Source: a virus. Taken from it: DNA of 64,000 nt. Positions 11,905-36,865 of this stretch are shown piece after piece. The position numbers and the translations under genes were made by a program. Below the pieces are notes generated by a model, which was given only the letters and a program-made list of their open reading frames with translations, was not told the DNA's origin and searched no databases. The stretch lies in the IMG/VR virus record IMGVR_UViG_3300045988_101018, positions 32,001-96,000 of that record. The stretch is one strand, 5' to 3'. Every line of letters begins with the position of its first letter. The stretch's first letter is position 1.

Positions 11905-11940
11905 ATACACTTATATTTATTGAATAATATGAGGGTGATT

Positions 11941-11984
11941 TGTCATCCTCTTTTTTATTATTGTTTGAAAGGAGGATGACAATG
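11941..11984 (+). promoter_or_regulatory. hairpin that sequesters the RBS of the giant gene
   Basis: tgtcatcctc (11941-11950) pairs perfectly with gaggatgaca (11972-11981). The second arm overlaps the GGAGG RBS and abuts the ATG at 11982. Confidence 0.3.
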
Positions 11985-14900: not shown

Positions 14901-17900
14901 GAGATGATTGCTCGCTATACACGTAACCAGATTTATGATGAGAACAAGCTTTTGACTCCTGAGTCTGTTGCCAATGCTTGTCCTAATATGCGTGTTATCA
15001 AGATTGAAGCTCCGCATTTCACCAATAACAAGAAGGACTTTGTAGCCAATACATCTTTCGAATGCATCTATAAGAATGGTGACGCAGTTCTTGACAACTG
15101 GAAGTTTGAGAATTGCTATCATTCTGGACAAGGCACTACATCAAATGAGTATGGTGCAGCTGGTCGTAACATCGACCTTATTGCTGGTTTTGATGGCAAG
15201 CATCAGGTGAGTAGCAAGATTGAGCTAGACCCAAATTATATTACAAAGCTTACGCTTGGCGATGGTAGTGTTGTTACTGACGGCTCTGGCAAGATTGCCC
15301 TTACTAGAACCTCTGTGCCTAATAACTGGTTCAACGTCAAAGTCAATATCGCAAGCTCCGAGATGGTGAACAACGCATATCTTCAGAAGAGATATAATGA
15401 TTATATCCCATATGCTACTCCTGCAACTCGTAGAGATTCTAAGATTAAGAACGACATGGAGTTCGTTAACTGCGTTGTGTTCATTAAGGAAAGCGACACA
15501 GATTTAACTACACACAGGGAATTCCAAGATACCTCATGGCATTTCTACGCCTTGGGCAACATCGGTGACTCTAAGAAGACAGATGTTACAAGAGCGTATG
15601 ACCCAGACGATATGAAAGAATTCGCTGTTGAGATTAGCGATAATACATTGCCTAATTCCATCTTCCAAACTGGCGTTGCCAATCCTGATGGTTCTATGAA
15701 ATATCCTATCACAAAAGCTGAATGGGTTGCTGGCAATACAGCATATGACGCTTTGTATAATGATTGGGATGGTTCGTTTGAGTTTAGGTACGATTGTTGC
15801 GGAGACTCAAAAGACGGCGAAGCTATTTCAAGCAGCGAGGAAAAGACTAAAATCAGAACGAAGAATAAACAGATTTGGCGAGACTTCTATGAGTTCGTAA
15901 TTACATCTACAGATGAGGAATTCAAGAACAATCTCAAGAATTGGTTTATTGTTGATTCTGCTACATACTTCTATCTATTCACGCTTAGATATACGATGAT
16001 AGACAACAGAAGTAAGAATACCTTCTGGCATTGGGCTAAGCATTATATTACAACGGCAGAAGCGGCAACGCTTGGCGATAAAGCTGCTTATTATACTGTT
16101 GACGATGAAGCCGCTGACATCAATAACGGATATCGTTTTGATCTCTGGGACTATGATAATGATAGCGCTTTGGGCATCAACAACAGCGGTGAGCTTACCA
16201 TGACTTATGGTAAGGAAGATACCGATTATCGCACAGATGGAGATAAGTCTTCTGGCTATATCTTCAATGCTGCTGAGTCCGTATTCTTCTGTCGTGTTCG
16301 TGACCTAATGGGTTCTGAGCTTCAGAAGATGTACGTAAGCCGTGAAAGTAAAAACTGTTGGAGCGCTTCTTCGCTTATCAATCAGTTCGATGAGAAACAG
16401 AATGAATGGTGCGAAGAGCTTTGGCGCGTTGACTATGTGCGTAAATACGAACGTCCTTATAAGGATGGCAACACTCGCTTCCTTGAGCAGATGATGAATG
16501 GCAAGAAGAAGTATCAGCGTAGACAGTTCGAGCGTGACCAAGAGATGTATATGGCAACTAAGTTCATTGGCAATACCGCTACATCTGACCAAATTATGTT
16601 TAGATGTAACACTCCAAAGGATGCCGTTGTCGCACCTAACTATACTCTTCATCTCACTCCATTTGCAGACATGTATCTGTCTGTAATGTTCGGCAATTCC
16701 TCTCCTACTCAGGTAAGGGCAAAAGCTGGCAAACAGTATGATATCACATGCCCATATGATACGATGGACGATACGGCTGTGCTTATCTATGGCGCATCTA
16801 GGATTCAGTCTGTCGGCGATGTGTCTGCTTGCTATATTCATGACAATGACTTCTCTAAGGCTGAAAAGCTAAAGGAGCTTATTATCGGTAACGCAACAGA
16901 AGGTTATTCTAACACCTTCTTGACGAACCTCGTTATCGGCAACAACAAGCTTCTTGAGAAACTTGATATCAGAAACACCCCAAACCTTGTAAGCAGCTTG
17001 GACTTCTCAAAGTGTATGAACCTTGAGGAGCTTTACGCTTCTGGCTCTGGTCTGAAAGGTGTTTTGTTTGCAAGCGGTGGCAGTATCAGGTTGGCTCAGT
17101 TACCTGACACCCTTACATCTATCAACATGAAGAATCTAATGTACCTAACCAATCTTTCTATTGCTGGGTACGATTCAATCTCTACGCTTATCATAGAGAA
17201 TTGTAATACGATAGATGTTAAAGATTTGCTTAATAAAGCTAAGAACGTCAACAGGGTTCGAATTACTGGTATCGATTGGAGTCTCGAAGACACGTCTCTT
17301 CTTGATAGAATCTACAAGATGTCTGGTATCGATAAGAACGGATACAATGTCGATAAGGCTGTGTTGGCTGGCACGGTACACGTTCCTATTGTAAAGCAGC
17401 AGCAGTTGTATGATTATCAGGAAGCATGGCCTGATTTAGAGATTATATTCAATACGATGGTTGAGCAGTTTATTGTCAAGTTCGTAAACTATGATGATGC
17501 TGTTCTTGATACGCAGTATGTCGATAAGGGCGGCAATGCCGTTGACCCGATAACGAGAGTAGACAATCCTATCGACACGCCCACCAAGCCAAGCTCCGTA
17601 AGCACAGACTTTACGTTTGAAGCATGGGATTTGCCGTTGACTGGCATCTTTAGTGATAGAACAATAAAGGCAACGTATAGCGAAACAACGAGACGCTATA
17701 CTATTAAGTATGTTTCCCGTGGTGTAACGCTTCAGGAGTCTACTGGCTTGTATGGTGAGAATGTTGAATACACTGGTGCAATTCCCACTTACACCCTTGA
17801 GGAAAACGCATATAAATATTATATGTTTGATAGGTGGGATAAGAGCGGTTTTATTGACGGAGATAAGACCGTAAATGCAATATTCGATACGTTTACATAT

Positions 17901-19127
17901 ACTCCAACTGCCCTTGCTGGCAAAGAGCTAAAGGATATGCGACCTGTTGAGGTTTATGCCATTACAAAACTAGGTCTTGATAATTCTGGTGCCAACATTC
18001 AGGCTGGTGACGCATATTCGTTTAATATGGGATATGATATTGATTATGATGATATCACATCGAAAACAGTTATCTCTGAGAAAACCGTTTTTGCTGGCAA
18101 GAATTATGTTGATACAGGAATCAAGCTTTTTGATACCGACAAAGATTTCGTATTGGCAATTGATTATAAATTCTTAAGCGGCACATCTGAAAAAAGCGTC
18201 CTTGCCCAATGTTTCCAGTCAAATGGTTCAAACGGATTTAAGTTGTGGTCTAATAGCGGAATCAAGATGAGCTGGGGTACGTCTTCGACTAGTGCTGGTT
18301 CTGTTGGCAGCCGTGACATGGTTGTACTTAGACACAAAAAAGGTGACAATAATATCTATGTATATTATTCTAACCTTAATGGCGGCGAACCCGATATTAT
18401 AAAGCTTGAAAGAACAAAGTCAACAATCATAGATAGCACTCTTGTATTCGGCTGTTCTAAGGCTGACGATGGCGCATATGAGAACTATGCTGTCGGCAAC
18501 GTGTATTGGAGCAAGATTTGGTACGAAGACCTTGGCGATGCAGTCTGCAAGAAGCTCGCTGGTTGGACGCATGAGAACATAGCGCTTGAGGTATGTAGTT
18601 TTAAAAAATACTATCTCAGCAATGAGCCGTCTAAGCGTTGTACGTTCAGCTTGCTTGCAAAGCACCTTCTTGACAGAAAGCGCGTATTTAATGAGAACGG
18701 AAGCAACGCTGGCGGTTGGACTAGCTCTGACCTGAATAGTTTCTTGAATACAAGATTCTATGAAGCATTGCCTGTAAAGATTAAACTTCTCATTAAGCAG
18801 GTCACGGTTAACTCTTCTATCGGCAATGGATCAAAAGAGCTTAGCGCATCTCAATGCTACGTCTCCATTCCTGCCGCTATCGAGCTTAGTAATTCATATG
18901 AAGTCAGCGGAGAGCCATTTGTTAACGAGGGTGAAATCATTTCTTATATGACATCTAATGATGCTAGGAAGCGTGCAGCTGTCGATGGCGATTACACGCC
19001 TTACTGGACTCGCTCACAGAACGTTTCGTATACAAATTATATCTATACGGTAAACGAGCAGGGCGATCTATATGGATTCAATACAGCTGGAACACAAAAC
19101 GGCGTATTGATTGAGATTTCTTTCTAA
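11982..19127 (+). CDS. giant (2382-aa) multi-domain tail fibre / host-adhesion protein
   Basis: ATG after gaaaggagg. The track ORF from 11940 has no RBS. Contains a Gly run, an LRR-like segment (17000-17300, L-x-x-L-x-L pattern) and a LamG/jelly-roll-like segment near the C-terminus (KLWSNSGIKMSWGT...VYYSNLNGGEP...VFGCSKADDG). Confidence 0.6.
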   Translation: MGLSFKDSLNKVKENNNARMINNNISPMSLDDDVSAYDDISLTSLDDESAVAAASDSLEGWTRSSNYLYYEEYSDDNISNVDDLKNVLIDKKQINLTQESNSQYIPFKMPRRYDGFDLLNTTIIIHYVNKDGYEDRSNVVNVYYNEEYIKFGWLVNKNATAVEGTLEFEIIASGVNSKGDEYVWKTKPNNQLSVLKSLAGNGAIEPDNTWITSFMTQVNEKVAEAQRYAQEAKTTVDGISDYADKAEASANKAQQVVDTAKTQLEGTVGDAVNNKVDAALSSYYTKKQVDDIVHNIDISDQLEEVKQQIANLDGLAKFNVTYDGSEMTFYNGEAVMKKIAITSNPTEEWTNNYTASIEGKINTAKSEIQSSADEKFATKASLNSANANISAVISTANANKENVTKLGDKVAKFEETVNGLDTSPRLTYDATYDEEQTYTLWEIQNEGKENEKKEPKAQFKIQGGGGGGGTSSILKITYITTTPVVATLDDKIIIKYNFSRTDSSGDVGGDGAATWKVDGSIVATNTAASGENSFDITDHITVGTHKVNLSIVDDAGSLVTKTWTVQRVDVRLESSFNDTFTYPIGKVSFDYTPYGAIQKRVHFVLDGKEIGTVDTTVSGVPLAYELPAQTHGAHLLEVYMTAEINGKAVESNHIIKDIIWYDSASDKPVIGCVKQKFTAKQYDTANIVYTVYDPSTEAPQVTLAVDGKTVSTLTIDSNTQTWQFKPSDVGTHTLTITCRDTVKTLTVTVEKLDIDVEPVTAGLAFDFNPVGKSNNDTDRLWSDGDVAMTVSDNFDWVNGGYQIDDNGDQYFGVKAGTTATISYNLFADDAKKNGKEFKLIFKTTNVAKSNATFLTCQSGTTSNVGLQMNVHEAYIKSSAKSLYIPYSEEDVIEWEFNINKDTDIPIVMSYEDGTPCRPMSYTGDYSFTQDSPVPITIGSPDCDVLIYRMKAYNTSLTSSAILSNFIADARTATEMIARYTRNQIYDENKLLTPESVANACPNMRVIKIEAPHFTNNKKDFVANTSFECIYKNGDAVLDNWKFENCYHSGQGTTSNEYGAAGRNIDLIAGFDGKHQVSSKIELDPNYITKLTLGDGSVVTDGSGKIALTRTSVPNNWFNVKVNIASSEMVNNAYLQKRYNDYIPYATPATRRDSKIKNDMEFVNCVVFIKESDTDLTTHREFQDTSWHFYALGNIGDSKKTDVTRAYDPDDMKEFAVEISDNTLPNSIFQTGVANPDGSMKYPITKAEWVAGNTAYDALYNDWDGSFEFRYDCCGDSKDGEAISSSEEKTKIRTKNKQIWRDFYEFVITSTDEEFKNNLKNWFIVDSATYFYLFTLRYTMIDNRSKNTFWHWAKHYITTAEAATLGDKAAYYTVDDEAADINNGYRFDLWDYDNDSALGINNSGELTMTYGKEDTDYRTDGDKSSGYIFNAAESVFFCRVRDLMGSELQKMYVSRESKNCWSASSLINQFDEKQNEWCEELWRVDYVRKYERPYKDGNTRFLEQMMNGKKKYQRRQFERDQEMYMATKFIGNTATSDQIMFRCNTPKDAVVAPNYTLHLTPFADMYLSVMFGNSSPTQVRAKAGKQYDITCPYDTMDDTAVLIYGASRIQSVGDVSACYIHDNDFSKAEKLKELIIGNATEGYSNTFLTNLVIGNNKLLEKLDIRNTPNLVSSLDFSKCMNLEELYASGSGLKGVLFASGGSIRLAQLPDTLTSINMKNLMYLTNLSIAGYDSISTLIIENCNTIDVKDLLNKAKNVNRVRITGIDWSLEDTSLLDRIYKMSGIDKNGYNVDKAVLAGTVHVPIVKQQQLYDYQEAWPDLEIIFNTMVEQFIVKFVNYDDAVLDTQYVDKGGNAVDPITRVDNPIDTPTKPSSVSTDFTFEAWDLPLTGIFSDRTIKATYSETTRRYTIKYVSRGVTLQESTGLYGENVEYTGAIPTYTLEENAYKYYMFDRWDKSGFIDGDKTVNAIFDTFTYTPTALAGKELKDMRPVEVYAITKLGLDNSGANIQAGDAYSFNMGYDIDYDDITSKTVISEKTVFAGKNYVDTGIKLFDTDKDFVLAIDYKFLSGTSEKSVLAQCFQSNGSNGFKLWSNSGIKMSWGTSSTSAGSVGSRDMVVLRHKKGDNNIYVYYSNLNGGEPDIIKLERTKSTIIDSTLVFGCSKADDGAYENYAVGNVYWSKIWYEDLGDAVCKKLAGWTHENIALEVCSFKKYYLSNEPSKRCTFSLLAKHLLDRKRVFNENGSNAGGWTSSDLNSFLNTRFYEALPVKIKLLIKQVTVNSSIGNGSKELSASQCYVSIPAAIELSNSYEVSGEPFVNEGEIISYMTSNDARKRAAVDGDYTPYWTRSQNVSYTNYIYTVNEQGDLYGFNTAGTQNGVLIEISF

Positions 19128-23979: not shown

Positions 23980-24005
23980 TTAAAAACTAAATACATAACC
24001 TTATT

Positions 24006-24046
24006 AGGGGTGTGAGTATTTCGCTTACGCCCCTTTTTATTTTTTA
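24006..24046 (+). terminator. rho-independent terminator
   Basis: ggggtgtgag...cttacgcccc imperfect stem followed by tttttatttttt. Confidence 0.5.
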
Positions 24047-24078
24047 TTATATAAAAATAAAAATTTGGAGGTGATTAT

Positions 24079-24177
24079 ATGGCATTACCATACGTAAGCG
24101 TGTCAGCAAGCAGCTCTGGCAATAGATATATCACTGTGACTGGTAGGATGAACTGGTTCTTCAGCAGAATAAAATGA
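24079..24177 (+). CDS. small ORF (32 aa) with a strong RBS
   Basis: ggaggtgattat then ATG. Too short to assess. Confidence 0.2.
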   Translation: MALPYVSVSASSSGNRYITVTGRMNWFFSRIK

Positions 24178-24256
24178 TAATTTTAAATAACAATTGAATA
24201 ATACGTGTACTGGGCATAGTGGGTTATTTATATTCTCCATGCCTTTGTTATCGAAC

Positions 24257-24270
24257 AAAAAAAAAAAAAA
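24257..24270. repeat. homopolymeric A14 tract upstream of the Listeria-Bacteroides repeat gene
   Basis: Fourteen consecutive A at 24257-24270, directly followed by TGA and then the TTG start at 24289. ORF 24194..24382 reads through the tract in a different frame. Confidence 0.8.
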
Positions 24271-24288
24271 TGAAAGGCGGTTGGTAAA

Positions 24289-25248
24289 TTGGCGAGTAAT
24301 AGCAATACTAAAAATAGCGGCAAGGGCGGCGTTACAACTGCGGTCAGCGCATGGTATGATAGCGAAACTGGGAATACAGTAAGACTTTGCATAAGTACGA
24401 GCGTTAAGGGAAGCTCTAATGGCCCGTGGGGCTATGGCGTAGTCGGGCAGTCTGGCTACGAAGGGAATGGAGCAAACTGGAAAGAGGTCGGTCGCGGAGT
24501 TTTTAACTATGCCAACACTGTCGTTAATGGTACAGCATATTTTACAGTCGGAAAAACCCATAGCGGATGGACTGCGAGCTGTTGGGCAAAGTCGTGGGGC
24601 GAAGCGGCTGGTGGATATGGCGCATACATTGCCAGCGATGATGTTCGCTGTAACGTATGGATCCCAGCAACGTCTAGATACACTCTTTCCTATAATGCCA
24701 ACGGTGGCTCGGGCGCTCCTTCGAGCCAAACAAAATGGCATGGCGAAACATTAACGCTCTCCTCTGCTAAGCCAACAAGAGACGGATATGAATTTGCTGG
24801 TTGGGGTACGTCTGCCACTGATACTGGCGTTAAATATGCTGCTGGCGGACAATATACAGGAAATGCAAGCATCACACTGTATGCTATCTGGACTAACGCT
24901 GCAAAGATGACTCTTGCATATAATGCCAACGGTGGCTCGGGCGCTCCTTCGAGCCAAACACATTTGATAAATACAACCTCTAAAATATCTGGTGCTAAGC
25001 CCACTAGAGACAAGTATGTGTTTTTAGGGTGGTCTACGAGCAGTTCTGCCACAAGTGCAACATATATCGCAGACGGGCAGTACACAAACAACAATTTTAC
25101 CAATGGCGCAACCGTCACGTTGTACGCTGTGTGGCTGAAGAAGAGTCCGAGTATATATATAAATTCATCAGAACATAGTTTCAAATCGGTTTGGGTAAAT
25201 GTGCCTTCTGGCAAGAGCCTTAAATCAATCTGGTTCAAGACTGGTTAG
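24289..25248 (+). CDS. Listeria-Bacteroides (Flg_new-type) repeat-containing surface-binding protein
   Basis: Two copies of Y-N-A-N-G-G-S-G-A-P-S-S-Q-T...A-K-P-T-R-D-G-Y-x-F-x-G-W-x-T-S...Y...T-L-Y-A-(I/V)-W, matching the Flg_new/List-Bact repeat consensus. Confidence 0.55.
   Translation: MASNSNTKNSGKGGVTTAVSAWYDSETGNTVRLCISTSVKGSSNGPWGYGVVGQSGYEGNGANWKEVGRGVFNYANTVVNGTAYFTVGKTHSGWTASCWAKSWGEAAGGYGAYIASDDVRCNVWIPATSRYTLSYNANGGSGAPSSQTKWHGETLTLSSAKPTRDGYEFAGWGTSATDTGVKYAAGGQYTGNASITLYAIWTNAAKMTLAYNANGGSGAPSSQTHLINTTSKISGAKPTRDKYVFLGWSTSSSATSATYIADGQYTNNNFTNGATVTLYAVWLKKSPSIYINSSEHSFKSVWVNVPSGKSLKSIWFKTG
24691..24960 (+). repeat. two identical 42-bp direct repeats (24691-24732 and 24919-24960) encoding the Flg_new repeat core
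   Basis: tataatgccaacggtggctcgggcgctccttcgagccaaaca occurs twice verbatim. Confidence 0.7.
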
Positions 25249-25267
25249 TTGATGGGAGGTAATTGAG

Positions 25268-25627
25268 TTGGCTGACGAAGTTGAATTAAGTGAAGTTGAT
25301 TACAAGCTTAAATATACAGGCGAGGAAGTCGATAGTCTCCTTGCGTTTATAAAAGATTTTAAAAATATCTACAACAAGATGAAGCGCGTTCAGGCTGGAT
25401 GTGAAGCTATCTCTACGACTACGGCTGGTGCAGATGTGATTAAGGTTATAGATTTCAGTGTTGCCTTTAACGGTGTGCCGAATGTTATGCTCATACCTAC
25501 TTTTCTAAATGATAAAACGGCTAAGGCAAAAGTTCTTAATATCACGTCTTCTAATTTCAAGGTTCAGGTAGTAGGAAATGATAACGATGCCACAACCAAC
25601 TTGTATTGGATAGCTACTGAACAGTAA
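25268..25627 (+). CDS. hypothetical protein
   Basis: TTG start after gggagg. 119 aa. Confidence 0.4.
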   Translation: MADEVELSEVDYKLKYTGEEVDSLLAFIKDFKNIYNKMKRVQAGCEAISTTTAGADVIKVIDFSVAFNGVPNVMLIPTFLNDKTAKAKVLNITSSNFKVQVVGNDNDATTNLYWIATEQ

Positions 25628-25674
25628 ATCTTGTTTGATTATATATCAAAGTTTGAATGAAAGGAAGTAAAAAT

Positions 25675-26118
25675 ATGAGTTGGGTTAATCTTAATGATGT
25701 TTATGTAAATCAGACTGGCGGAACTATTGCTGGCGATCTATCTGTAAACGGCGCTTTGACGGTAAATGATGGCAAGGGAACGAACACCACATACAATGTT
25801 GCCAATGAAATTACAACGTTGCGGGATTCCGTATCCCAATGTAAACCGCAATATAAAATTTATGCTGGGTCGAGGGTAATAAACATCACACAATCTTGGG
25901 GTACGCTATTTACAAAAGACGAATTTATATCCTCTTTTGGACGCGAATTTAATAATTCAAGAGACAGCATATCAGTTATGAATGGAGATGCGAAAGCCAA
26001 CAATATTACCGTTTTTGGTGTTTCGTATTATCCACAAGACGGCAAGTTGCTTGTTGCATTATCGGCGAACGGCGGCGGTGCTTTTAGGATCAATTATATC
26101 GTAGTTCTTGCTGAGTAG
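25675..26118 (+). CDS. shufflon expression locus: 56-aa constant N-terminus, then site-encoded D-S-V-S-Q, then the currently fused C-terminal cassette (cassette 0)
   Basis: ATG after aaaggaag. An in-frame copy of the 13-bp site in reverse orientation (gggattccgtatcccaa, 25823-25839) encodes D-S-V-S-Q. This is the only copy preceded by an RBS, a start codon and an N-terminal domain. The N-terminus carries a GGTIAGDLSVNGALTV beta-strand-like motif. Confidence 0.6.
   Translation: MSWVNLNDVYVNQTGGTIAGDLSVNGALTVNDGKGTNTTYNVANEITTLRDSVSQCKPQYKIYAGSRVINITQSWGTLFTKDEFISSFGREFNNSRDSISVMNGDAKANNITVFGVSYYPQDGKLLVALSANGGGAFRINYIVVLAE
25823..25839 (-). repeat. recombination site R0 (reverse orientation) inside the expressed gene
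   Basis: Its reverse complement, ttgggatacggaatccc, matches the core of R1-R8. Confidence 0.75.
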
Positions 26119-26152
26119 ACGTTATTGGCATACGCATATAAGAAATCATGCG

Positions 26153-26488
26153 CTAGTTGATATACCATGAACAAATACCCCTGTTAATAGCACCAGATAT
26201 CGAAGCAGCAACTTGAAACCCAATTGCTCCGTTTGGATGGACATAGCCATATGCGCATACGTTGAGTATGTAGCCATTGGCATTTGTCACACATGATGGC
26301 GAATAAATTGTATGGTCTGGTCGAAGATTTTCTGGAATGACATGTTCTATTCCCCAATACTCATTTGTTGATTGAGAAACAGTCCATACGAGTATACACG
26401 TGTATCCAACACGCCGAATATGAACGTATGAGGAACTACCCGGCGCTCCGTATAGCACAAGCGTATCGTCTTGGGATACGGAATGCTA
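26153..26488 (-). other. silent C-terminal cassette A (starts at the R1 forward arm with H-S-V-S-Q, ~105 codons)
   Basis: The minus-strand frame opens at the TAG inside R1 and reads CAT-TCC-GTA-TCC-CAA before the unique sequence. No RBS or ATG. Converges on the expressed gene, 35 bp apart. Confidence 0.6.
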
Positions 26489-26508
26489 AGTATGGGTTTC
26501 CGTATCCC
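26471..26508. repeat. site R1, a palindromic double site (forward arm 26471-26488 ttgggatacggaatgcta; reverse arm 26498-26508 ttccgtatccc)
   Basis: Seen directly. Cassettes diverge from the two arms. Confidence 0.75.
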
Positions 26509-26843
26509 TGACAAAAGACACATGCAAAGGAGCCAACGGCTGGGTTGTACAAACTGGCGCAATTACACGTACAGAAAATTGTGTAACCATGTGGGTAGAT
26601 GTTGTTGCTGGAAATAGCGCGAATAAGAATGTAAATACAACGTTTGCGACAATGCCGTCTGCTTTCGCGCCTAGCACATATAATATTGAACTTCCAGTAT
26701 TAGGGTTCACTACAACGTCTTATCCAATTAGCTTTTGGATAATAATCACTACAAGTGGAGAAATCAAAATTAAGCAATATGTACTACCGTCTAACACAGT
26801 TCTAGGCCAAATTAAATGTTGTTGTACGTATTTAAAAATTTAA
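26498..26843 (+). other. silent cassette B (plus strand, starts at the R1 reverse arm with V-S-V-S-L)
   Basis: The frame opens after the TAA inside R1 (gctaag) and reads GTT-TCC-GTA-TCC-CTG. It contains track ORF 26589..26843 and ends with TAA immediately before R1b. Confidence 0.55.
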
Positions 26844-26860
26844 TAGCATTCCGTATCTCA
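26844..26860 (-). repeat. site R1b (reverse orientation, 1 mismatch: tagcattccgtatctca)
   Basis: Seen directly. Confidence 0.7.
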
Positions 26861-27221
26861 GATTAAATTATTGTGGAGCGGGTCTGTGTACGGCGGCGGT
26901 TCATTTGTCGTACCAGAGCTAAAAGAATATACATTTGTAGAAGTGGTTACTTCAAATGCTGATGAAAATCATTGGGGCGTATTATGTTTTAATGACATGA
27001 ATGCATTAAAATCTACCGATGATGCATATGGCATGTGGGTATACGCAGATATACACGCTGGCTTGGATTACATAGTATCAATAAAATCAAAATTGGAAAT
27101 ACAGAAAGACTTAAAGACTGTGAAATTCACAGCTGGATATGCATTTAACGTAATGAAAGAAAACACCGTTATTACTTCAACGCAAAAACTTCGTATCGTT
27201 GCTGTGTATGGCGTTAGATAG
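26844..27221 (+). other. silent cassette B' (plus strand, starts at R1b with H-S-V-S-Q-I-K-L-L-W-S-G)
   Basis: TAG-CAT-TCC-GTA-TCT-CAG then an open frame that includes track ORF 26871..27221. Confidence 0.6.
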
Positions 27222-27227
27222 GCTGTA

Positions 27228-27581
27228 TTATAGATACAACATTCCAGATATCTTACGCACTCCATATGCATACATGCCGTTATAGTATGATGCATTTAAA
27301 GTCAGTTTTCCATCTGGGTCAAGCTCAACAAATACTGAAAATTGCGCAGAAAAATCTGCAACTCCTACAAAATATACATTTGTTTTTGGTCTATATTTTG
27401 ATGGCAATGATATGGACACTGACTTATATCCATTTCCACTTGCAGACATAAAGCCAGAAACCCTGTCACATATAACCTTTATCGCGTTTTGACTTGGAAT
27501 ATACACGACATTTATATCAAATGTTGCACCAACAAGGTCAACGCTATAGTCGCCAATTTTCTCTTGGGATACGGAATGCTA
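27228..27581 (-). other. silent cassette C (minus strand from R2, H-S-V-S-Q-E-K-I-G-D)
   Basis: Extends track ORF 27228..27506 up to R2. Converges on B', 6 bp apart. Confidence 0.6.
27564..27581 (+). repeat. site R2 (ttgggatacggaatgcta)
   Basis: Seen directly. Its last 3 nt (cta, read as TAG on the minus strand) form the stop codon of cassette D0. Confidence 0.75.
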
Positions 27582-27905
27582 TTTTAACTTTCCTATAACA
27601 GTTTCCTGTACGTACATTCCTACATTAGACATAGATGTTGCAGATGAAAGATAGCATCTAACGTCTGTTACATTCTTAATTTCGACATAATGTCCAATCC
27701 ATAATCCATTTCCAGTGACGGGATTAACATCTGCATATAAGATAGAGTCGTATATATCAGGGGCGTTAAACGCATAAGAACAAAAGTACAATGAACCAAA
27801 TAGAGCTGTTGCAGAAATGGTTTTATGAACTTTTCTTGTTGACAGAGCATAGCCTATTCCAAAATTAAAAATAGTCCAATCTCCATTTTGGGATACGGAA
27901 TACTA
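27579..27905 (-). other. silent cassette D0 (minus strand from R3, Y-S-V-S-Q-N-G-D-W)
   Basis: Extends track ORF 27579..27791. The stop codon lies inside R2. Confidence 0.6.
27888..27905 (+). repeat. site R3 (ttgggatacggaatacta)
   Basis: Seen directly. Confidence 0.75.
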
Positions 27906-27910
27906 GGTTA

Positions 27911-28161
27911 TTAAACTTCAATATAATAAACGATAACATTTATTTTTCTATTTGAATATTTCCCTGCGCTGCCGTCCCATGCCATAAGACGAACTGTTCT
28001 ACCCTGTTGTGCGTCAGTTCCCGTATGAAACGCATATCTCGCATCGTACATCCCACCAATTCCTATTGGAATCTGCCTTGCGTTAAGTCCCGTTTCGAAA
28101 TATCCATTAGGGTCTGTAGTTGTATCTATTTGTTTTGTTTTTATAATATGGGATACGGAAT
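27911..28161 (-). other. silent cassette D (minus strand from the R4 forward arm, N-S-V-S-H-I-I-K-T-K)
   Basis: Open frame of about 83 codons ending with TAA at 27911-27913. Not in the ORF track because it has no M. Confidence 0.5.
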
Positions 28162-28187
28162 TCCCATGTTTAGTATTCCGTATCCCA
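28149..28187. repeat. site R4, a palindromic double site (tgggatacggaat - tcccatgtttagt - attccgtatccca)
   Basis: Seen directly. Nearly identical to R6. Confidence 0.75.
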
Positions 28188-28527
28188 AATCAGTAATAGA
28201 GTATTGCTTTGGAGTGGAACGGCTGGCAAAGGTGTGAAAATTACGATTGACAGCGACTATTCATTTAAAGAATTCAAATCATTTTATTGCCTTACAAGTA
28301 TCGATAAAACAATCGGATTGCCGCTTGTAAGAAACTCTGGAATACAACAAGACCAGCATTTACACGGCATTACTGGATGGGATGATGGTAATACAACATA
28401 TACGCTTGTTGGGCTAATTAGAATAAATACAGAGACAACTGCGACCATTACGTCTATATCAAAACACGATATAAGTGGCAATGGTGGAATTGCTGGCAGC
28501 TTACTTAAACTATGGGGATGTTACTAA
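28175..28527 (+). other. silent cassette E (plus strand from the R4 reverse arm, S-V-S-Q-I-S-N-R-V-L-L-W-S-G)
   Basis: Extends track ORF 28204..28527. Shares the LLWSG motif with B'. Confidence 0.6.
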
Positions 28528-28530
28528 TCG

Positions 28531-28881
28531 TTACTTCCACATGCCTTTGACGTTATATTCTATAAATGCCACTGTAGTAGTATTGTTATATTTTATATCT
28601 TGGTTTAACACATATACTCCAGTGTCTACTAGCCCAATAGAAGCTCCTGTACCAGATAATACGTAAACGCCCTTTTGTCCAGAGCTATATATTGCAGAAG
28701 CGCCCTTATACAATAAACTAGTTAAAGGAAATGGAAAATCAACAGCGGGTGCAGTAACACTACCAATCCCTTTTATTTCTTTTCCTCCCCAAAATTCTGC
28801 AAGACCGCTATTCCATTTGCGATAAAACCAGATTCCAGATGTTCCCTGTGCGACAATATAGTCGTGGGATACGGAATGCTA
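28531..28881 (-). other. silent cassette F (minus strand from R5, H-S-V-S-H-D-Y-I-V)
   Basis: Extends track ORF 28531..28713 to R5. Converges on E, 3 bp apart. Confidence 0.6.
28865..28881 (+). repeat. site R5 (tgggatacggaatgcta)
   Basis: Seen directly. Its last 3 nt provide the stop codon of cassette G. Confidence 0.75.
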
Positions 28882-29144
28882 TAACGGTATAGCAATCCAA
28901 TTTATAGTACATTGTATGTGTTGATATTCTTGGTGACTATTCCAAACGTCCATAGTAAACCCAGTTGATGTTTTGTTATACACCATTTCCGTAACAGAAG
29001 GCCATCCCCATGTTTCAATTTTTGGAAACTGAAGAGATGTGATAACAACATAATCTGTTTCGATTGGTGTATTAAATTTAACCTGAACAACGTTATCATT
29101 TATGTTTGTTGTCATGGTAACAACACCTCTTTGGGATACGGAAT
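28879..29144 (-). other. silent cassette G (minus strand from the R6 forward arm, Y-S-V-S-Q-R-G-V-V-T)
   Basis: Contains track ORF 28879..29115. The stop codon is the TAG inside R5. Confidence 0.6.
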
Positions 29145-29170
29145 ACCCATGTTTAGTATTCCGTATCCCA
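29131..29170. repeat. site R6, a palindromic double site (ttgggatacggaat - acccatgtttagt - attccgtatccca)
   Basis: Seen directly. Confidence 0.75.
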
Positions 29171-29501
29171 GAGCGAATGGAAAGTCCTCAAGGGCAACAT
29201 CGGCTCCAACCATCTGGCGTACAAAATCTGCAATGGCATCTGCTATCTGAGCATCGATTGCGGCGGAGACTGGAGCATCAAGGCCAACGCGAAGTCCACT
29301 GTTGACATCATTACCATGCCAGACGAAGCATTGCCATCCACGTGGATTGTTTCAGCTGCTTGTTACCCAAAGGGCGGCAATTCAGACTTCGTTTGCGGTG
29401 TGACATTAAACAGGAAGACTAAGAAGCTATCCGTATGCAACTACTCGAACACGGCAACCAACTACTATTCCGTCACTTTCTGCTATCCAGTCAAAAATTA
29501 G
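29158..29501 (+). other. silent cassette H (plus strand from the R6 reverse arm, S-V-S-Q-S-E-W-K-V)
   Basis: Extends track ORF 29316..29501. Confidence 0.55.
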
Positions 29502-29504
29502 CAG

Positions 29505-29795
29505 TTATATGACATTCTTTTTGTATAGAATTACGAATGTAATTTTAAAATCATGCCATGTGCCTTTGTTTGTTACCTCGTTATTTTGAATGCTTGCATA
29601 TGCAGTGTCGTTATCGCGCAGACCAAATTGCGTGATAATACATGAACCTGTGTGGTTTGACTTCACCGTGGTAAGGCATACAGGCGTATAGCCATCGTAT
29701 TTCACGCTGGTGTCAAAGTCGGCAACCGCGCCATACCTTAATGATTTGGCGGCAGACGTGAAGCTCTTTGTCGTGTACTGGGATACGGAATGCTA
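29505..29795 (-). other. silent cassette I (minus strand from R7, H-S-V-S-Q-Y-T-T-K)
   Basis: Extends track ORF 29505..29705. Converges on H, 3 bp apart. Confidence 0.6.
29779..29795 (+). repeat. site R7 (tgggatacggaatgcta)
   Basis: Seen directly. Confidence 0.75.
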
Positions 29796-29797
29796 TG

Positions 29798-30102
29798 TTA
29801 AAAAATAACAAAGGTTGCCCTTACGCTTCTGTTGCCAGACTGTAAATATAAATATCCATTTTGATAATAGGCAGTTGCGTGTAGGCTTATGTCAGAAACA
29901 TAATAGCAATCTACACAATCGTCAGGCCGTGTATTATTTTTAATAAAATGAGATATGGGAAACACTGTAGAACATAGCGGTCTATTATTGTAAACGCATA
30001 TTAAACAACCCATTTTTGTTGTGGGTAAATTGACTTTAAATGATTCGTATGAAGTAGAACCGCTTGTTTTTGCCACCTCTACAGGAGCTTGGGATACGGA
30101 AT
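29798..30102 (-). other. silent cassette J (minus strand from R8, D-S-V-S-Q-A-P-V-E)
   Basis: Extends track ORF 29798..30076. The frame is closed by TAA at 30128-30130, so it is not fused to the recombinase. Confidence 0.55.
30089..30102 (+). repeat. site R8 (ttgggatacggaatcccc), the closest match to R0 and the outermost inverted partner
   Basis: Seen directly. Lies 6 bp from the recombinase stop codon. Confidence 0.75.
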
Positions 30103-30108
30103 CCCCAG

Positions 30109-31005
30109 TTAGCTTATAGCCCTTATTTTAGACTTTCTAGCTTTGTCGAATATCAGCTTCTCAACAGCCGCCTGAGCTTCTTGGCAGATTGTTTTACGAG
30201 GAACGATATAGTGATTATATGCTGTGCTAATCTCTGTATGACCAAGCATCATGGCAACGGTTTCGATGCCAACTCCTGCTTCAATTGCAAGTGTAGCCCA
30301 TGTATGACGCATGTTAGTCATAGATACATATGGTACACCCATCTTCTTACACTGTGACTTGATAGCACGAGCTGCTTTATCGGGAGATACATCACCGATA
30401 AGAAGCCCATGTCCTTTAATCTGCTTTAGGCGCTGACGTGCAAACTTAGGTAGATAGCAAGACCTAGTAGACTTTTCTGTCTTAGTTTTTACTGTGATGA
30501 TTTGACCGTTCACATATTGGCGCGACTTGCTAATACGCACCTCGCCAGTCTTAAGATTGATATCAGACCATTCGAGAGCGCAAGCTTCGCCACGGCGCAA
30601 ACCAAGAGTTACAGCACAGATAGTTACGGCTTCAGCCCAATGACCCCACATGCCGCGAAGCATCTCTGATACCTCTTGTGCGTCTAAAACATCTGGGCGA
30701 TAAGGCTTGGGGTGGTTTACTTCTATGTATGCGGTTGGATCGATAATATGTAGGCGCTTCTTGCGAATCCACCAACGGATGATTTGGCGAATACATTTAA
30801 ACGCTTTCTCTCCTGCGCCAGCTTTTTCAAATGAGTCTACCCACTCCTGCAAATCATCAGGGCAGATATCTTCAATCTCACATTCGCCCCATCGCGGAAG
30901 TACATGAAGACGCATTGATGAGTCGTATCCAGCTATGGTGGATGCCGCCATCTTCTGTGTTTTCTCGGGTAGATAATGCTGTTCATAGATGTCGATAAGT
31001 TTCAT
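30109..31005 (-). CDS. tyrosine site-specific recombinase (298 aa), candidate shufflon invertase
   Basis: R (LGLRRGEA), H-x-x-R (MRHTWATLA), LGHT and the Y of STAYNHY in canonical order. Sits directly beside the site array. Confidence 0.75.
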   Translation of the reverse strand: MKLIDIYEQHYLPEKTQKMAASTIAGYDSSMRLHVLPRWGECEIEDICPDDLQEWVDSFEKAGAGEKAFKCIRQIIRWWIRKKRLHIIDPTAYIEVNHPKPYRPDVLDAQEVSEMLRGMWGHWAEAVTICAVTLGLRRGEACALEWSDINLKTGEVRISKSRQYVNGQIITVKTKTEKSTRSCYLPKFARQRLKQIKGHGLLIGDVSPDKAARAIKSQCKKMGVPYVSMTNMRHTWATLAIEAGVGIETVAMMLGHTEISTAYNHYIVPRKTICQEAQAAVEKLIFDKARKSKIRAIS

Positions 31006-31021
31006 TTTTTAAATCCTTTCA

Positions 31022-31082
31022 TTGAAAAAATCCCACGCAATTTAACTCGAAATGAGTATATAACTTGCGTGGGATTTTTTCA
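31022..31082. promoter_or_regulatory. perfect 19-bp inverted repeat (ttgaaaaaatcccacgcaa ... ttgcgtgggattttttcaa, 23-nt loop) in the divergent promoter region
   Basis: Seen directly. Lies between the recombinase start (31005) and the divergent plus-strand gene (31200). Confidence 0.5.
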
Positions 31083-31199
31083 ATGGTGCATATAAATTTA
31101 TTTATATATAAATTAAAAGTTCTACAATTTTGAATATTAGAAAACACATTTTATGTTACAATATTAACCATATTTATAAACTCTAATGACCAAGGAGGT

Positions 31200-32036
31200 A
31201 TGTCTATGTACGAAGTGCCTTGTTTAAATCTTAACGGAGACACAATTAATAGATTCTATCAATGGGACATAGACCAGAAGATAGTTATCGACCTTAATGG
31301 ATGCGATGAGAGATATCTTCAGAATCCACCTGAAGTACATTTCTCTAATTCAAGTAGGAAAGAAGCGTTGGTTGTTCGCTCTACTGTAAAATATAGTGGT
31401 GATGATGTAGCTGTTCAAGATGACAGTGTGGCAACAATGCACGCAGGAGATATCATTATTGCCGATATTCCTAATATTCTATTGCAGGAGCCTTATCCTC
31501 TACTTGTCTATGTATATTTAACTGACGCAGATGATTCGTCTTCTCAGAAAACAATTCTATATAGTGAGATCCCTGTTCGTAAACGTGCAAAGCCAAGCGA
31601 TTATCTCTACGTTGAGAATATTACTCGCATTACTGCCGAGATGATTAAAAAAGAAATTGAATCTAGCACCGAGACGGCTAGAACAAATGCCATTAACGAG
31701 ATTAATAACGTTAAAACAGAGTCTATAGCTACTGTTACAGATACAAGAGATGCTGCTGTAAATACCATAACACAGACTAAGACAAACGCCGTTAGCACTG
31801 TTGATGAAGCCAAAGAAGGCTTTATCACCACTGGCAACGCCCTTGTTAATACCGCCACTGAGATTAAGAATAATACTCAGAAGACATATGATAATGCCGT
31901 TTCTGTTGCAAATAAGACTCAGCAGACTATTGAGACAAACATAAACACGCTCATCACAAAGAACGGCGTGTATCTTAAGACTGTTAACGATGGAAGCGGC
32001 AATGCAAATCTTGCCATTCTCGTAAACCAATCATAA
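31200..32036 (+). CDS. hypothetical structural protein (fibre-module associated)
   Basis: RBS aaggaggt upstream. The C-terminal motif VNDGSGNANLAI is shared with the next ORF. Confidence 0.45.
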   Translation: MSMYEVPCLNLNGDTINRFYQWDIDQKIVIDLNGCDERYLQNPPEVHFSNSSRKEALVVRSTVKYSGDDVAVQDDSVATMHAGDIIIADIPNILLQEPYPLLVYVYLTDADDSSSQKTILYSEIPVRKRAKPSDYLYVENITRITAEMIKKEIESSTETARTNAINEINNVKTESIATVTDTRDAAVNTITQTKTNAVSTVDEAKEGFITTGNALVNTATEIKNNTQKTYDNAVSVANKTQQTIETNINTLITKNGVYLKTVNDGSGNANLAILVNQS

Positions 32037-32051
32037 AGGAGGTGCGATGAT

Positions 32052-32519
32052 ATGTCAACTGCCTATCATGTTGAAACTATCGAGCGCATCACCGAGCAGA
32101 TGTTGACAGAGGAAGTAATCAGCGATGTAAACAAGATAATGTGGGACGCAGACACACAGGTTAAAAAGATTAAAACTGATGCTGTTAATGAGATTGAAAA
32201 AATTACTCCCGAAGCTGTCAATACAATCAACAAAATTGAACAAGATGCTTTAAAGTATATTGCCAGTGAAAAGCGGGATATGATTTTCACTTTGGGTGAG
32301 AATGATGCCGATGGTAATCCAGCAGTAAGGGGCAAACTGCGCAAAATTGATACTGATACTACTGCGATATATAATAAGCTTCTTGATGTCGCTCCCAATA
32401 CAGAAGCAAAGATACAGCAAAATATAAGAATTATGATTGTTAATGATGGTTATGCTATTGAGCTTGTAAACGATGGCAGTGGAAACATTGCCGTTAATTT
32501 AGCAAGGAGGTCTGTATAA
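32052..32519 (+). CDS. hypothetical protein (shares the C-terminal VNDGSGN motif)
   Basis: RBS aaggaggtg upstream. 155 aa. Confidence 0.45.
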   Translation: MSTAYHVETIERITEQMLTEEVISDVNKIMWDADTQVKKIKTDAVNEIEKITPEAVNTINKIEQDALKYIASEKRDMIFTLGENDADGNPAVRGKLRKIDTDTTAIYNKLLDVAPNTEAKIQQNIRIMIVNDGYAIELVNDGSGNIAVNLARRSV

Positions 32520-35668: not shown

Positions 35669-36865
35669 TTATAATAGGAAGTCTTCTGCTTTTGCCACTT
35701 CTTCATTCAGTTTTGTCTCTAACAAGTGGGTATATTTCAAAGTGGTAGCATAACTAGTATGCCCCATGATTCTTTGTATAAACACTGGATCTAATTTCTT
35801 TTCAAAACACCTAGTAGCAAACGTATGTCTAAACGCATGTGGATAGATGTGTTCCATTTTTTCTGGCGCTCTGCCTTCTATTGCCGCATTATATTCTTCT
35901 TTTTCGTTGATGTTCTTCAATACCTTTTCAATGTTATGGGACAATGCATATCTTGTTACTGGCGAGCCAAGTGTTGTCGTAAAAACTAAATCGCCTAACT
36001 CTGGTCGCAATCTCCATCTACTTCCAAGCTTTGCTTTGTATTGGTCTTGTTTTACCTTCCAATCTTTAAATAGTTCTCCTACATTCCCGAAGAACGGAAT
36101 AGTTCTGTAGCTATTGCTCGTCTTTGGCGTTGTGAGATATTCCATTTTCTTGCCGTCAACATAGCCAATGCTCAGGCTTCTTTGTATCCTGATTGTTTTG
36201 TTTTGCCAGTTTATATCCTGCCATTGAAGGCCGCTGAATTCACCGATTCTCATGCCAGTAAGTAATAAGATTTGGTAAGCTTCATTGTAATACTCATGTT
36301 CTATTTCATCTAAAAACATTTTCATTTCACGAGAACTCAAAACCCTACGTTCTTGAACAGCTTCATTCTCGTCTTTTATTGCTATATTAATACACGGGTT
36401 AGACTTAATGATTTGATTCATAACCGCTATATCCAAACACTCTCTGAGTACGCCAAGTGCTTCTCTCAGCGTTCTTGCTTTGAATTTACTAAGCAATTCG
36501 TTTGTTGTGTCTTGCATATTCATATGAGATATATTCTCTATCTTTTTATCCCCTATTGCAGCAATGTATGTGTTAGATACTTTTCTATGATATGCCTTTT
36601 TAGACACTTCCGACTTCAATGCTGGCTTTTTGTATTTTTCAAACCACTCTTCAAACCATTCAGACAGTGTAAGGTTTGGTCTAATATTCTTTTCGTCTCT
36701 TAGAATCTTAATTTTTTCTTCTTCAAAACGTTTCTTTAATGTTGGTAGATGCATATCGTATAAGCAAATTTTTGTACCATTAATCATTGCACGCGCTTCA
36801 AAACGTTTATCTTTTCGTTGACTGTATCCGCGCCCCAAGTCTTTGCCTTTAAGGTCTTTCCCCAT
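35669..36865 (-). CDS. int: phage-type tyrosine integrase
   Basis: 398 aa. R (LLTGMRIGEF), HAFRHTFAT, IMGHTSYATTLKYTHL. A repeat-rich non-coding region lies alongside. Confidence 0.8.
   Translation of the reverse strand: MGKDLKGKDLGRGYSQRKDKRFEARAMINGTKICLYDMHLPTLKKRFEEEKIKILRDEKNIRPNLTLSEWFEEWFEKYKKPALKSEVSKKAYHRKVSNTYIAAIGDKKIENISHMNMQDTTNELLSKFKARTLREALGVLRECLDIAVMNQIIKSNPCINIAIKDENEAVQERRVLSSREMKMFLDEIEHEYYNEAYQILLLTGMRIGEFSGLQWQDINWQNKTIRIQRSLSIGYVDGKKMEYLTTPKTSNSYRTIPFFGNVGELFKDWKVKQDQYKAKLGSRWRLRPELGDLVFTTTLGSPVTRYALSHNIEKVLKNINEKEEYNAAIEGRAPEKMEHIYPHAFRHTFATRCFEKKLDPVFIQRIMGHTSYATTLKYTHLLETKLNEEVAKAEDFLL

Follow-up and report, generated by a model that had tools for sequence, protein, structure and literature searches.

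The window analysed here is a stretch of 64,000 nucleotides of the IMG/VR virus record IMGVR_UViG_3300045988_101018 (positions 32,001 to 96,000 of that record), and within it a run of 13 short, asymmetric sites, each followed by an open cassette, lies next to a gene for a tyrosine recombinase of 298 amino acids (aa). This locus is very probably a phage shufflon of the Rin family, swapping the C-terminal domain of a small protein encoded in the tail module. In related genomes the constant 5′ flank of the expressed gene is joined, exactly at the core of the site, to at least 17 cassette families, 11 of which are types present in the window. In addition, among the 120 homologues of the expressed protein that were listed, of 412 matches, 11 of the 13 cassette types of the window are found joined to the constant N-terminus, with the junction at residue 52. 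An earlier note, made from the sequence of the window, had claimed that inversion joins alternative C-termini to one constant start, and these two results, with breakpoints that fall in the core among relatives, bear this out.

Sites, cassettes and the expression site

When the 64-kb window was searched with TGGGATACGGAAT, allowing up to two mismatches, 13 copies were found within about 4.3 kb (25826-30102), 11 of them exact, while 1.1 are expected by chance in a window of this length (highest count 4 in 100 shuffles). The 13 sites in 4.3 kb described in the earlier note were thus recovered. The two imperfect copies lie at 26848 (one mismatch, synonymous, TCT = Ser) and 26497 (two mismatches), and outside the array there is a single weak match, at 63522 with two mismatches, which is consistent with chance. 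In its coding orientation each copy reads ATTCCGTATCCCA, with the frame TCC-GTA-TC(C/T) giving S-V-S in 13 of 13 cases, and in this frame each is followed by an open segment of 82-123 codons; the in-frame S-V-S claimed earlier is therefore correct, with the range of 80-115 codons given for the segments needing revision. Because an open run of at least 82 codons is found at just 13% of positions and frames drawn at random from the window, which is dense in genes, 13 open segments out of 13 are not attributable to chance. Together the segments take up 25828-30100, adjacent cassette ends or sites being 2-34 bp apart, in the order 0> <A B> B'> <C <D0 <D E> <F <G H> <I <J. The features of the array are as follows.

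25675..25827, + strand: constant 5′ part (Rc equivalent), 51 codons, MSWVNLNDVYVNQTGGT...EITTLRD, with Shine-Dalgarno-like AAAGGAAG
25826..26118, + strand: expression site and cassette 0; core 25826-25838, flank GCGGG directly followed by ATTCCGTATCCCA
25828-26118, + strand: cassette 0, 96 aa, presently fused to give a 147-aa protein
26153..26484, - strand: cassette A, 109 aa; site 26472-26484; convergent with 0, one inversion away
26497..26843, + strand: cassette B, 114 aa; variant site TTTCCGTATCCCT at 26497-26509 (S-V-S-L); two inversions away
26848..27221, + strand: cassette B', 123 aa; site ATTCCGTATCTCA at 26848-26860; in tandem after B, two inversions away
27228..27577, - strand: cassette C, 115 aa; site 27565-27577; convergent with B'
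27579..27901, - strand: cassette D0, 106 aa; site 27889-27901
27911..28161, - strand: cassette D, 82 aa; site 28149-28161, one half of a head-to-head double site
28175..28527, + strand: cassette E, 116 aa; site 28175-28187; two inversions away
28531..28877, - strand: cassette F, 114 aa; site 28865-28877; convergent with E
28879..29144, - strand: cassette G, 87 aa; site 29132-29144
29158..29501, + strand: cassette H, 113 aa; site 29158-29170; two inversions away
29505..29791, - strand: cassette I, 94 aa; site 29779-29791; convergent with H
29798..30102, - strand: cassette J, 100 aa; recombinase-proximal site 30090-30102, flank CTGGGG directly followed by ATTCC...

A gene start precedes only the copy at 25826, as had been stated, with an ATG at 25675 and AAAGGAAG at 25660-25667. 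The further statement that the 12 distal segments possess neither a ribosome-binding site nor a start codon holds for 11-12 of the 12, as in-frame ATG, GTG or TTG codons do occur inside silent cassettes and cassette G, alone among these, has an internal ATG (codon 10) with GAGGT 5′ of it. An unfused product of 78 aa from this ATG (28879-29115, - strand) is conceivable, and the feature may also be due to chance. The ends of the convergent pairs are separated by 34 bp (0/A), 6 bp (B'/C), 3 bp (E/F) and 3 bp (H/I), in line with the 3-35 bp noted previously. No kinship was found among the 13 cassette families with hhalign, every probability being below 9%. In a simulation on the window sequence all 13 fusions were reachable, eight by one inversion and those of B, B', E and H by two, in keeping with the claim of up to 13 variants.

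Rearrangements among related genomes and the probable position of the crossover

Nineteen related viral contigs carrying the recombinase (72-100% aa identity; several of 126-133 kb) were retrieved from IMG/VR, and overall about 40 related gut-phage contigs were compared. When cassettes of at least 40% identity were grouped into families, at least 59 families were counted in the window together with 17 related loci, with 2 to 13 cassettes per locus. Across the roughly 40 contigs shared cassettes were found in differing order and orientation. The constant flank 5′ of the expression-site core ends ..GTTGCGGG, and in the form TTACAACGTTGCGGG it is joined across genomes to 0, B', x11, x2, x5, E, x1 and x13; likewise, the recombinase-proximal flank ATAAGCTAACTGGGG is joined in relatives to J, x5, x1, x10, x3, x12 and x16.

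In several cases the breakpoints can be placed directly. In contig L146, of 130,671 bp and 95% identical in its backbone, I follows the constant flank, and the BLAST alignment with the window stops at 25838 and resumes inverted at 29791, the overlap corresponding exactly to the cores at 25826-25838 and 29779-29791. In L151 position 25839 is joined to 27577, so that the constant flank leads to C inside the core. The backbones of L135 and L137 are 98-99% identical, with shared cassettes inverted and a different cassette expressed, while L132 and L153, whose cassettes are 99-100% identical, differ by one flip in the orientation of the first pair towards the constant region. The convergent pairs E/F, B'/C and 0/A invert as whole units; the order E> <F of the window is F> <E in L124 and L127, the unit B'> <C is intact but first in line in L121, and the 0/A pair has moved and flipped in L127. 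The constant flank is joined to B' in L121, L162 and L167 and to E in L126, L159, L160 and L161, and F is the expressed cassette in L155. With regard to the remaining types, D0 is at another position in L124, G is present in L120, L124, L125, L158 and L160, and H is silent at 96% identity in L146 and L147. In L146-L167, further contigs from ENA, Logan and human-gut metagenomes, the expression site holds 10 named families and one unassigned cassette. A scan of metagenomes with the expression-site flank returned 16 contigs, all 16 from human gut metagenomes, with one contig per sample, hence allowing comparison between samples only.

Contigs L120, L123, L129, L136, L141, L146 and L151 end inside the shufflon, often about 10-110 bp past a site, and the site repeat (13-17 bp, with a core of 13 bp) is shorter than typical assembler k-mers. 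Such contig ends are only suggestive of alternative junctions co-existing in those samples, whether as isomers or as mixed strains. In L138 (11348-12404) and L164 (8202-8810) the constant region is tandemly duplicated, with each copy followed by a site and a cassette, x5 and then x1, giving a putative second expression site; L130 has one copy and the contig ends there. Between the two copies of L138 lies a 20-aa fragment of an H-like cassette.

The same joints are apparent at the protein level. The types fused among the listed homologues are 0, A, B, B', C, D0, D, E, F, I and J (80-98% identity), and many database proteins with differing C-termini have exactly this N-terminus (100% identity). 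Examples of fusions to the N-terminus are those to A (P0090, 97% identity), B (P0112, 96%), B' (P0068), D0 (P0105, 80%), D (P0114, 94%) and F (P0103, 98%), while none to G or to H was seen among the 120 listed. Ten predicted fusions, B and B' being left out, were also looked up exactly in a collection of 15 billion proteins, to stand in for minor isomers of the strain itself, and the predicted fusion to C was found there (P0121, on contig L151, backbone 95% identical).

For the comparison of sites, 133 were taken from the window and the 17 related IMG/VR loci, each with an open cassette after it. Their consensus is G-N-(A/T)TTCCGTATCCC-N, in which TTCC-R-TATCC is essentially invariant and position -2 is G in 133 of 133. 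At positions -4 to -2, TAG is present in 88 of the 133 sites and at tandem junctions is the stop codon of the preceding cassette; the remaining 45 have GGG or TGG. This group includes both outermost sites of the array, at the expression and the recombinase-proximal end, and in every head-to-head pair one of the two sites. The sequence 5′ of the core keeps its position and that 3′ of the core moves with the cassette. Position 1 stays with the flank, being A at the expression site and T at silent sites in the L135/L137 clade, and positions 12-13 mostly move with the cassette, examples being CCAA for E (L126, L128), CCCC for x1 and CCCT in four of the five copies of family B (window, L121, L124 and L127; the L122 copy has CCCA). 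From this behaviour of position 1 and positions 12-13 we infer that strand exchange is bounded to TTCCGTATCC. The site variant, judged from the loci compared, is found to co-vary with the recombinase clade; the clade 84-85% identical in recombinase (L131, L134) has ATTCCATATCCC at all 20 sites, read S-I-S, and the clade at 72% has TTTCCGTATCCCA at its silent sites.

Head-to-head double sites are present at 26472-26509, 28149-28187 and 29132-29170, with a conserved spacer of 12-13 bp (approximately RCTAARYATGGGW) that is also found in relatives, and each such pair has one left arm of the TAG type and one of the GGG type. Double sites that overlap completely, as a palindrome (TGGGATACGGAATTCCGTATCCCA), are present in L121 and L126 as well.

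The proposed mechanism starts from a fixed gene start, which supplies the promoter and operon context, the ribosome-binding site and 51 constant codons ending in a helix, with codons 52-54 (S-V-S) encoded by the core. The 12 silent C-terminal cassettes, lacking a promoter and, in 11-12 cases, a start signal, are situated downstream on the two strands, each behind the same asymmetric site. The 298-aa recombinase would synapse two inverted sites, exchange strands within TTCCGTATCC and invert the DNA between them, and with the left flank fixed and the cassettes swapping, a new head of about 80-120 aa would continue the reading frame of the constant N-terminus. Virions with differing host-recognition heads could in this way be released from one lysogenic or carrier population, a form of host-range bet-hedging.

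Inversion does not account for all of the variation. Cassette C in L151 is 99.7% identical to that of the window (27226-27577) with a flank that is 95.2% identical, while other shared cassettes are just 75-91% identical in backbones of about 95% identity, and such backbones hold very different cassette sets. As far as can be judged from these comparisons, cassette genealogy is decoupled from the backbone (identities of 75-99.7%), and for this reason some exchange beyond inversion must occur. The same observations would fit a reassortment in which co-infecting phages exchange cassettes horizontally or through general homologous recombination, with the 13-bp motif being a shared coding (neck) sequence. 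As an explanation of the locus as a whole this is very improbable, since 13 bp is too short for efficient RecA-type exchange and the conservation extends to the non-coding position -2 and to double sites that code for nothing upstream. Furthermore, pairs invert as units with breakpoints in the core, the site variant follows the recombinase clade at every site, and a dedicated recombinase is always adjacent.

Exchange also appears to reach across wide distances. A cassette of Siphoviridae sp. ctl617 (L140 3855, + strand) matches family x4 (L132 1830, L124 12388) with up to 48% aa identity over 93 aa (E-value 5e-30), and 8 of 27 cassettes from Bifidobacterium-type shufflons of high G+C content (GC; 0.60) match low-GC cassettes (E-value <1e-3). 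These similarities suggest that cassettes (head domains) and recombinase travelled jointly between phages that differ widely. It may tentatively be proposed, though with doubt, that the array is also a horizontally exchangeable cassette platform besides an inversion switch, which would explain the decoupling of cassette sets and genealogies from the backbone. Exchange would then proceed by rix-mediated intermolecular recombination, rix being the recombination site of Rin systems, or by excision and reinsertion between direct sites, and receptor-binding heads could pass between co-infecting phages, even those of different host phyla, in an integron-like manner for tail tips. In keeping with this proposal, the number of cassettes varies from 2 to 13 between loci, some strains seem to have two expression sites, and the recombinase is 71-72% identical to its counterparts in Coriobacteriia.

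The recombinase and its kinship with Rin systems

Next to the array lie the invertase gene and a possible control element, and further on is a second recombinase.

30109..31005, - strand: tyrosine recombinase (Rin-like invertase), 298 aa; stop codon 6 bp from the last site
31020..31085, no strand assigned: inverted repeat of 25 nt, 96% complementary, 16-nt loop, upstream of the recombinase start
35669-36865, - strand: second tyrosine recombinase, 398 aa; Phage_integrase, SAM_3 and Int_M domains, with an N-terminal extension

The 298-aa protein possesses the Pfam Phage_integrase domain (2e-16) and a SAM-like domain (SAM_3) starting at residue 9, is assigned to a PHROG integrase family and is without an N-terminal arm-binding extension. 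Its identity as a tyrosine recombinase and its 6-bp distance from the last site were both given correctly in the earlier note, and in most of the 19 related IMG/VR loci a site is likewise present within 6-20 bp after the recombinase stop. In alignment with XerA, XerD and relatives R137, K175, R233, H256 and a tyrosine (Y263 or Y266) are conserved, and with this predicted catalytic set the enzyme is not obviously dead. It would be the one to catalyse the rearrangements.

The inverted repeat lies in the interval from the start of the invertase gene to the following + strand gene and overlaps a promoter-like TTGAAA-17-TATACT on the - strand. It is a possible terminator, operator, invertase-binding or other control element of the invertase gene, and may be a part of the shufflon system. 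A similar AAAATCCCAC...GTGGGATTTT hairpin is found upstream of the homologous recombinase in ctl617 (L140 2031-2084).

In a search of 50,697 phage records the recombinase had two outstanding matches, ctl617 (38% identity, 8e-53) and Bifidobacterium phage PMBT6 (34.5%, 9e-50). Both are annotated 'integrase' and lie inside the tail module, beside small open reading frames (ORFs) separated by TAGCTTTCCGTAACCC repeats. Homologues of 71-72% identity are also found in Coriobacteriia, namely in Collinsella metagenome-assembled genomes and Enteroscipio rubneri.

The 'integrase' annotation of homologues, together with the matches to Pfam Phage_integrase and PHROG integrase families, would favour a reading of the 298-aa protein as a prophage integrase or Xer-like resolvase, the repeats then belonging to independently expressed small paralogous genes. 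That is scarcely credible here. The window has a second, longer tyrosine recombinase of 398 aa, which is 21% identical to the first and is probably the true integrase, which would make the phage temperate. NCBIfam gave only sub-threshold Xer and IntI matches for the 298-aa protein, far below every cutoff, and the silent segments lack starts and ribosome-binding sites, begin exactly at the core and are found in databases fused to the constant N-terminus. The earlier note had held that a role as the prophage integrase would speak against a shufflon, and with a separate candidate for that role this was not borne out.

The Rin system was described in Bifidobacterium prophages integrated in dnaJ2 (Bb423phi1, Bl157phi1), with a constant Rc, five Rv cassettes and an 11-bp rix site, TTCCCTAACCC (Mavrich et al., 2018, PMC6109161), and its inversions were observed in prophage and virion sequence (PMC6109161). 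The Rin shufflon of Eggerthella lenta clade-1 prophages has rix 5′-ttccgtat-3′ (Buttimer et al., 2022, PMC8778435). The core in the window, TTCCGTATCCC, agrees with the former at 9 of 11 positions and contains the latter, so the site, for which the earlier note had recognised no counterpart, is that of a known family. The frame across the site is also the same, being LRDSVSQ in the window, AWNSVSQ in L135, LWDSVTL in PMBT6 and LWDSVTQ in ctl617. On the strength of these sequence comparisons the locus is assigned to the Rin family of phage shufflons, set beside the Rin of Bb423phi1 by its published description.

Like the Rin loci of Bifidobacterium, PMBT6 and ctl617, the locus has the recombinase at one end and Rc at the other, startless Rv cassettes on both strands, a short asymmetric repeat before each cassette (TTCCGTAACCC in PMBT6 and ctl617, TTCCGTATCCC here), the frame D/N-S-V-S/T, a separate integrase (a candidate in the window) and mutually dissimilar cassettes. 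However, it resides in a low-GC phage of about 125 kb, while the record lengths of PMBT6 and ctl617 point to actinobacterial temperate siphoviruses of about 36-40 kb; it has 13 cassettes instead of the five of Bifidobacterium; and its constant part of 51 aa is unrelated to the actinobacterial Rc of about 165-210 aa. The setting, the number of cassettes, the short constant part and the at least 59 families in the lineage are new here, phage-encoded tyrosine-recombinase shufflons of Rin type being already known. As to the E. lenta type, the published rix lies inside the window core and the related high-GC viral contigs L135-L137 use TTTCCGTATCCCA, but those elements are of high GC (0.60-0.64) with a much larger Rc and fewer cassettes (5-6 in L135 and L137). 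To our knowledge the locus would be the largest phage-encoded shufflon.

Outside the Rin family, a BV01-like phage of Phocaeicola vulgatus has a tail-fibre shufflon of three cassettes and six isoforms, with activity seen through read junctions (PMC13596623, 2026 preprint). It resembles the locus in the window in being phage-encoded, recombinase-flanked and multi-cassette and in overlapping the 3′ end of a tail-fibre gene, and differs in its three cassettes and in its site, TGGGAGAACT, which has the TCCCA end in common with the window site and is otherwise different. The locus of the window was not described in either the GuFi-phage preprint or a survey of bacterial programmed inversions.

The R64 shufflon has 7 sites and 7 C-termini, and its sfx site has the conserved arm GTGCCAATCCGGT. 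The likeness of the locus to R64/ColIb-P9, to which the earlier note had compared it, stands as an analogy of logic: a tyrosine recombinase, intragenic asymmetric sites, a constant N-terminus with alternative C-termini and convergent pairs. The target here is a phage tail-module protein instead of the conjugative pilus adhesin pilV, and there are 13 sites. In a tblastn search of 72,556 plasmids (E-value <=1e-3) the recombinase matched 358 records, with Bacillus, Ligilactobacillus and Thermus foremost and no Escherichia/Salmonella IncI group, and an sfx-like motif (with the arm as given above) searched in the window at three mismatches gave 8 matches against 8.75 expected, none of them cassette-associated. 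With no Rci match, no excess of sfx and a target other than pilV, an R64/IncI shufflon (Rci-sfx-pilV) was ruled out.

Gin, Cin and Min (of Mu, P1 and p15B) are serine invertases dependent on an enhancer and Fis. They too vary host range through inverted tail-fibre C-termini, Min being a multi-site shufflon, but a serine-invertase switch (Gin/Cin/Min/Pin) was ruled out as the enzyme is a Pfam Phage_integrase with R, K, R, H and Y aligned to XerA/XerD. An integron was ruled out as well, with an NCBIfam integron integrase score of 32.9 bits against a cutoff of 265 and with cassettes that are in-frame 3′ ends of a gene and not promoterless whole ORFs with attC hairpins. The vsa, vpma and vsp systems of Mycoplasma also have one expression site, silent 5′-truncated cassettes (up to about 11-13), a tyrosine recombinase and short sites; they differ in consisting of bacterial lipoprotein genes and in having unrelated sites and recombinases.

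A number of points weigh against the shufflon as it is read here. The rearrangements are seen between related genomes, and it is from these that we infer that one population of this phage undergoes inversion. Of the six contigs with the exact protein, three were read (L148-L150), and all of these have a single arrangement at 99.96-100% identity, and nine of the ten exact predicted fusions are absent from the 15-billion-protein collection, the tenth (that to C) coming from a different strain. At the His-II (second-box) position the recombinase has T230, where most tyrosine recombinases have His. Many sites are direct repeats of one another, between which a recombinase without bias would cause the loss of cassettes, and a bias towards inversion is assumed by analogy. 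Finally, the likely role of the product in receptor binding is based on gene context and weak-to-moderate fold matches.

The single arrangement, the absent fusions and the Thr at His-II would suit a fossil shufflon, in which Rin-type inversions took place in the past and the locus is now static through an inactive or unexpressed recombinase, leaving the cassettes as a frozen archive. This is considered unlikely. The recombinase ORF is intact and 92-99% identical over 12-13 related loci of differing configuration, 11 of the 13 cores are perfect with S-V-S retained in both variants, and 12 of 12 silent cassettes are open. The His-II position is occupied by Thr or Arg throughout the clade (Arg in PMBT6), including loci that have clearly rearranged, and minor isomers may be hidden in consensus assemblies. 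A shufflon of Rin type that is still capable of inversion is thus the reading preferred.

The expressed protein, the phage and its host

The shufflon gene lies among tail genes, with a Flg_new repeat protein and an H-type lectin upstream and tail-fibre-like genes (PHROGs) downstream, which agrees with the host-recognition module described in the earlier note. Two of these neighbours, both conserved in relatives, are likely to be further adhesion components of the same tail tip.

24289-25248, + strand: Listeria-Bacteroides (Flg_new) repeat protein, 319 aa, with two repeats
25268-25627, + strand: H-type lectin domain protein, 119 aa, directly upstream of the shufflon gene

No match was found for the expressed protein (147/153 aa) in Pfam, PHROGs, NCBIfam or PDB profile searches. 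In the AlphaFold2 (AF2) model of the 147-aa protein a helix at residues 42-54 spans the junction, and the C-terminal domain (residues 60-147) is a confident beta-sandwich, with a predicted local distance difference test score (pLDDT) above 90 over most of it; the model of cassette E is of low confidence and all-beta. The best viral fold match of the expressed protein is an L-shaped tail fiber protein (E-value 6.5e-7). Gene context and fold matches make a role in receptor binding or at the tip of a tail fibre the most likely one for this small and probably trimeric protein. Upstream in the tail module there is also an ORF of 2395 aa (11940-19127, + strand) with matches to PHROG 14959 and 24896, both of unknown function, and DUF6273 on the database gene call.

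The exact strain is represented by contigs of 125,705-125,707 bp, has a GC of 0.39 and is carried by the samples behind ERR1190669, ERZ27272354 and ERZ19636006. Among the genes of the window are those for PolIII-alpha, an anaerobic ribonucleotide reductase (NrdD) and a RecD-like helicase, and no tRNA genes were found in a search of the window. The PolIII-alpha of Clostridioides phage pCD1602_4 (132.5 kb) is 50% identical to the one encoded here, and on sequence the two phages thus appear to be distantly related. Megablast of 24000-32500 against the 50,697 phage records gave no match and that of 36000-60000 against plasmids gave only two 45-bp matches, and since both searches were essentially empty there is no close named relative. 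The host may be a gut anaerobe of the Bacillota, the one lead to it being this PolIII-alpha match. A scan of genome contigs found recombinase homologues only in high-GC Coriobacteriia, which were excluded as host by the GC of 39% of the phage against that of these genomes.

The host range of a phage is usually treated as fixed per genome, but here 13 dissimilar candidate receptor-binding heads stand behind one start. The Rin system of small actinobacterial prophages would with this finding also take in phages of about 125-130 kb in the human gut. Host prediction and annotation of receptor-binding proteins in such phages must consider the silent cassettes, and short-read assemblies may break at the locus or freeze an arbitrary isomer. 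The 13-bp site and the 298-aa recombinase are, in addition, a candidate for a synthetic-biology toolkit of shufflon invertases.

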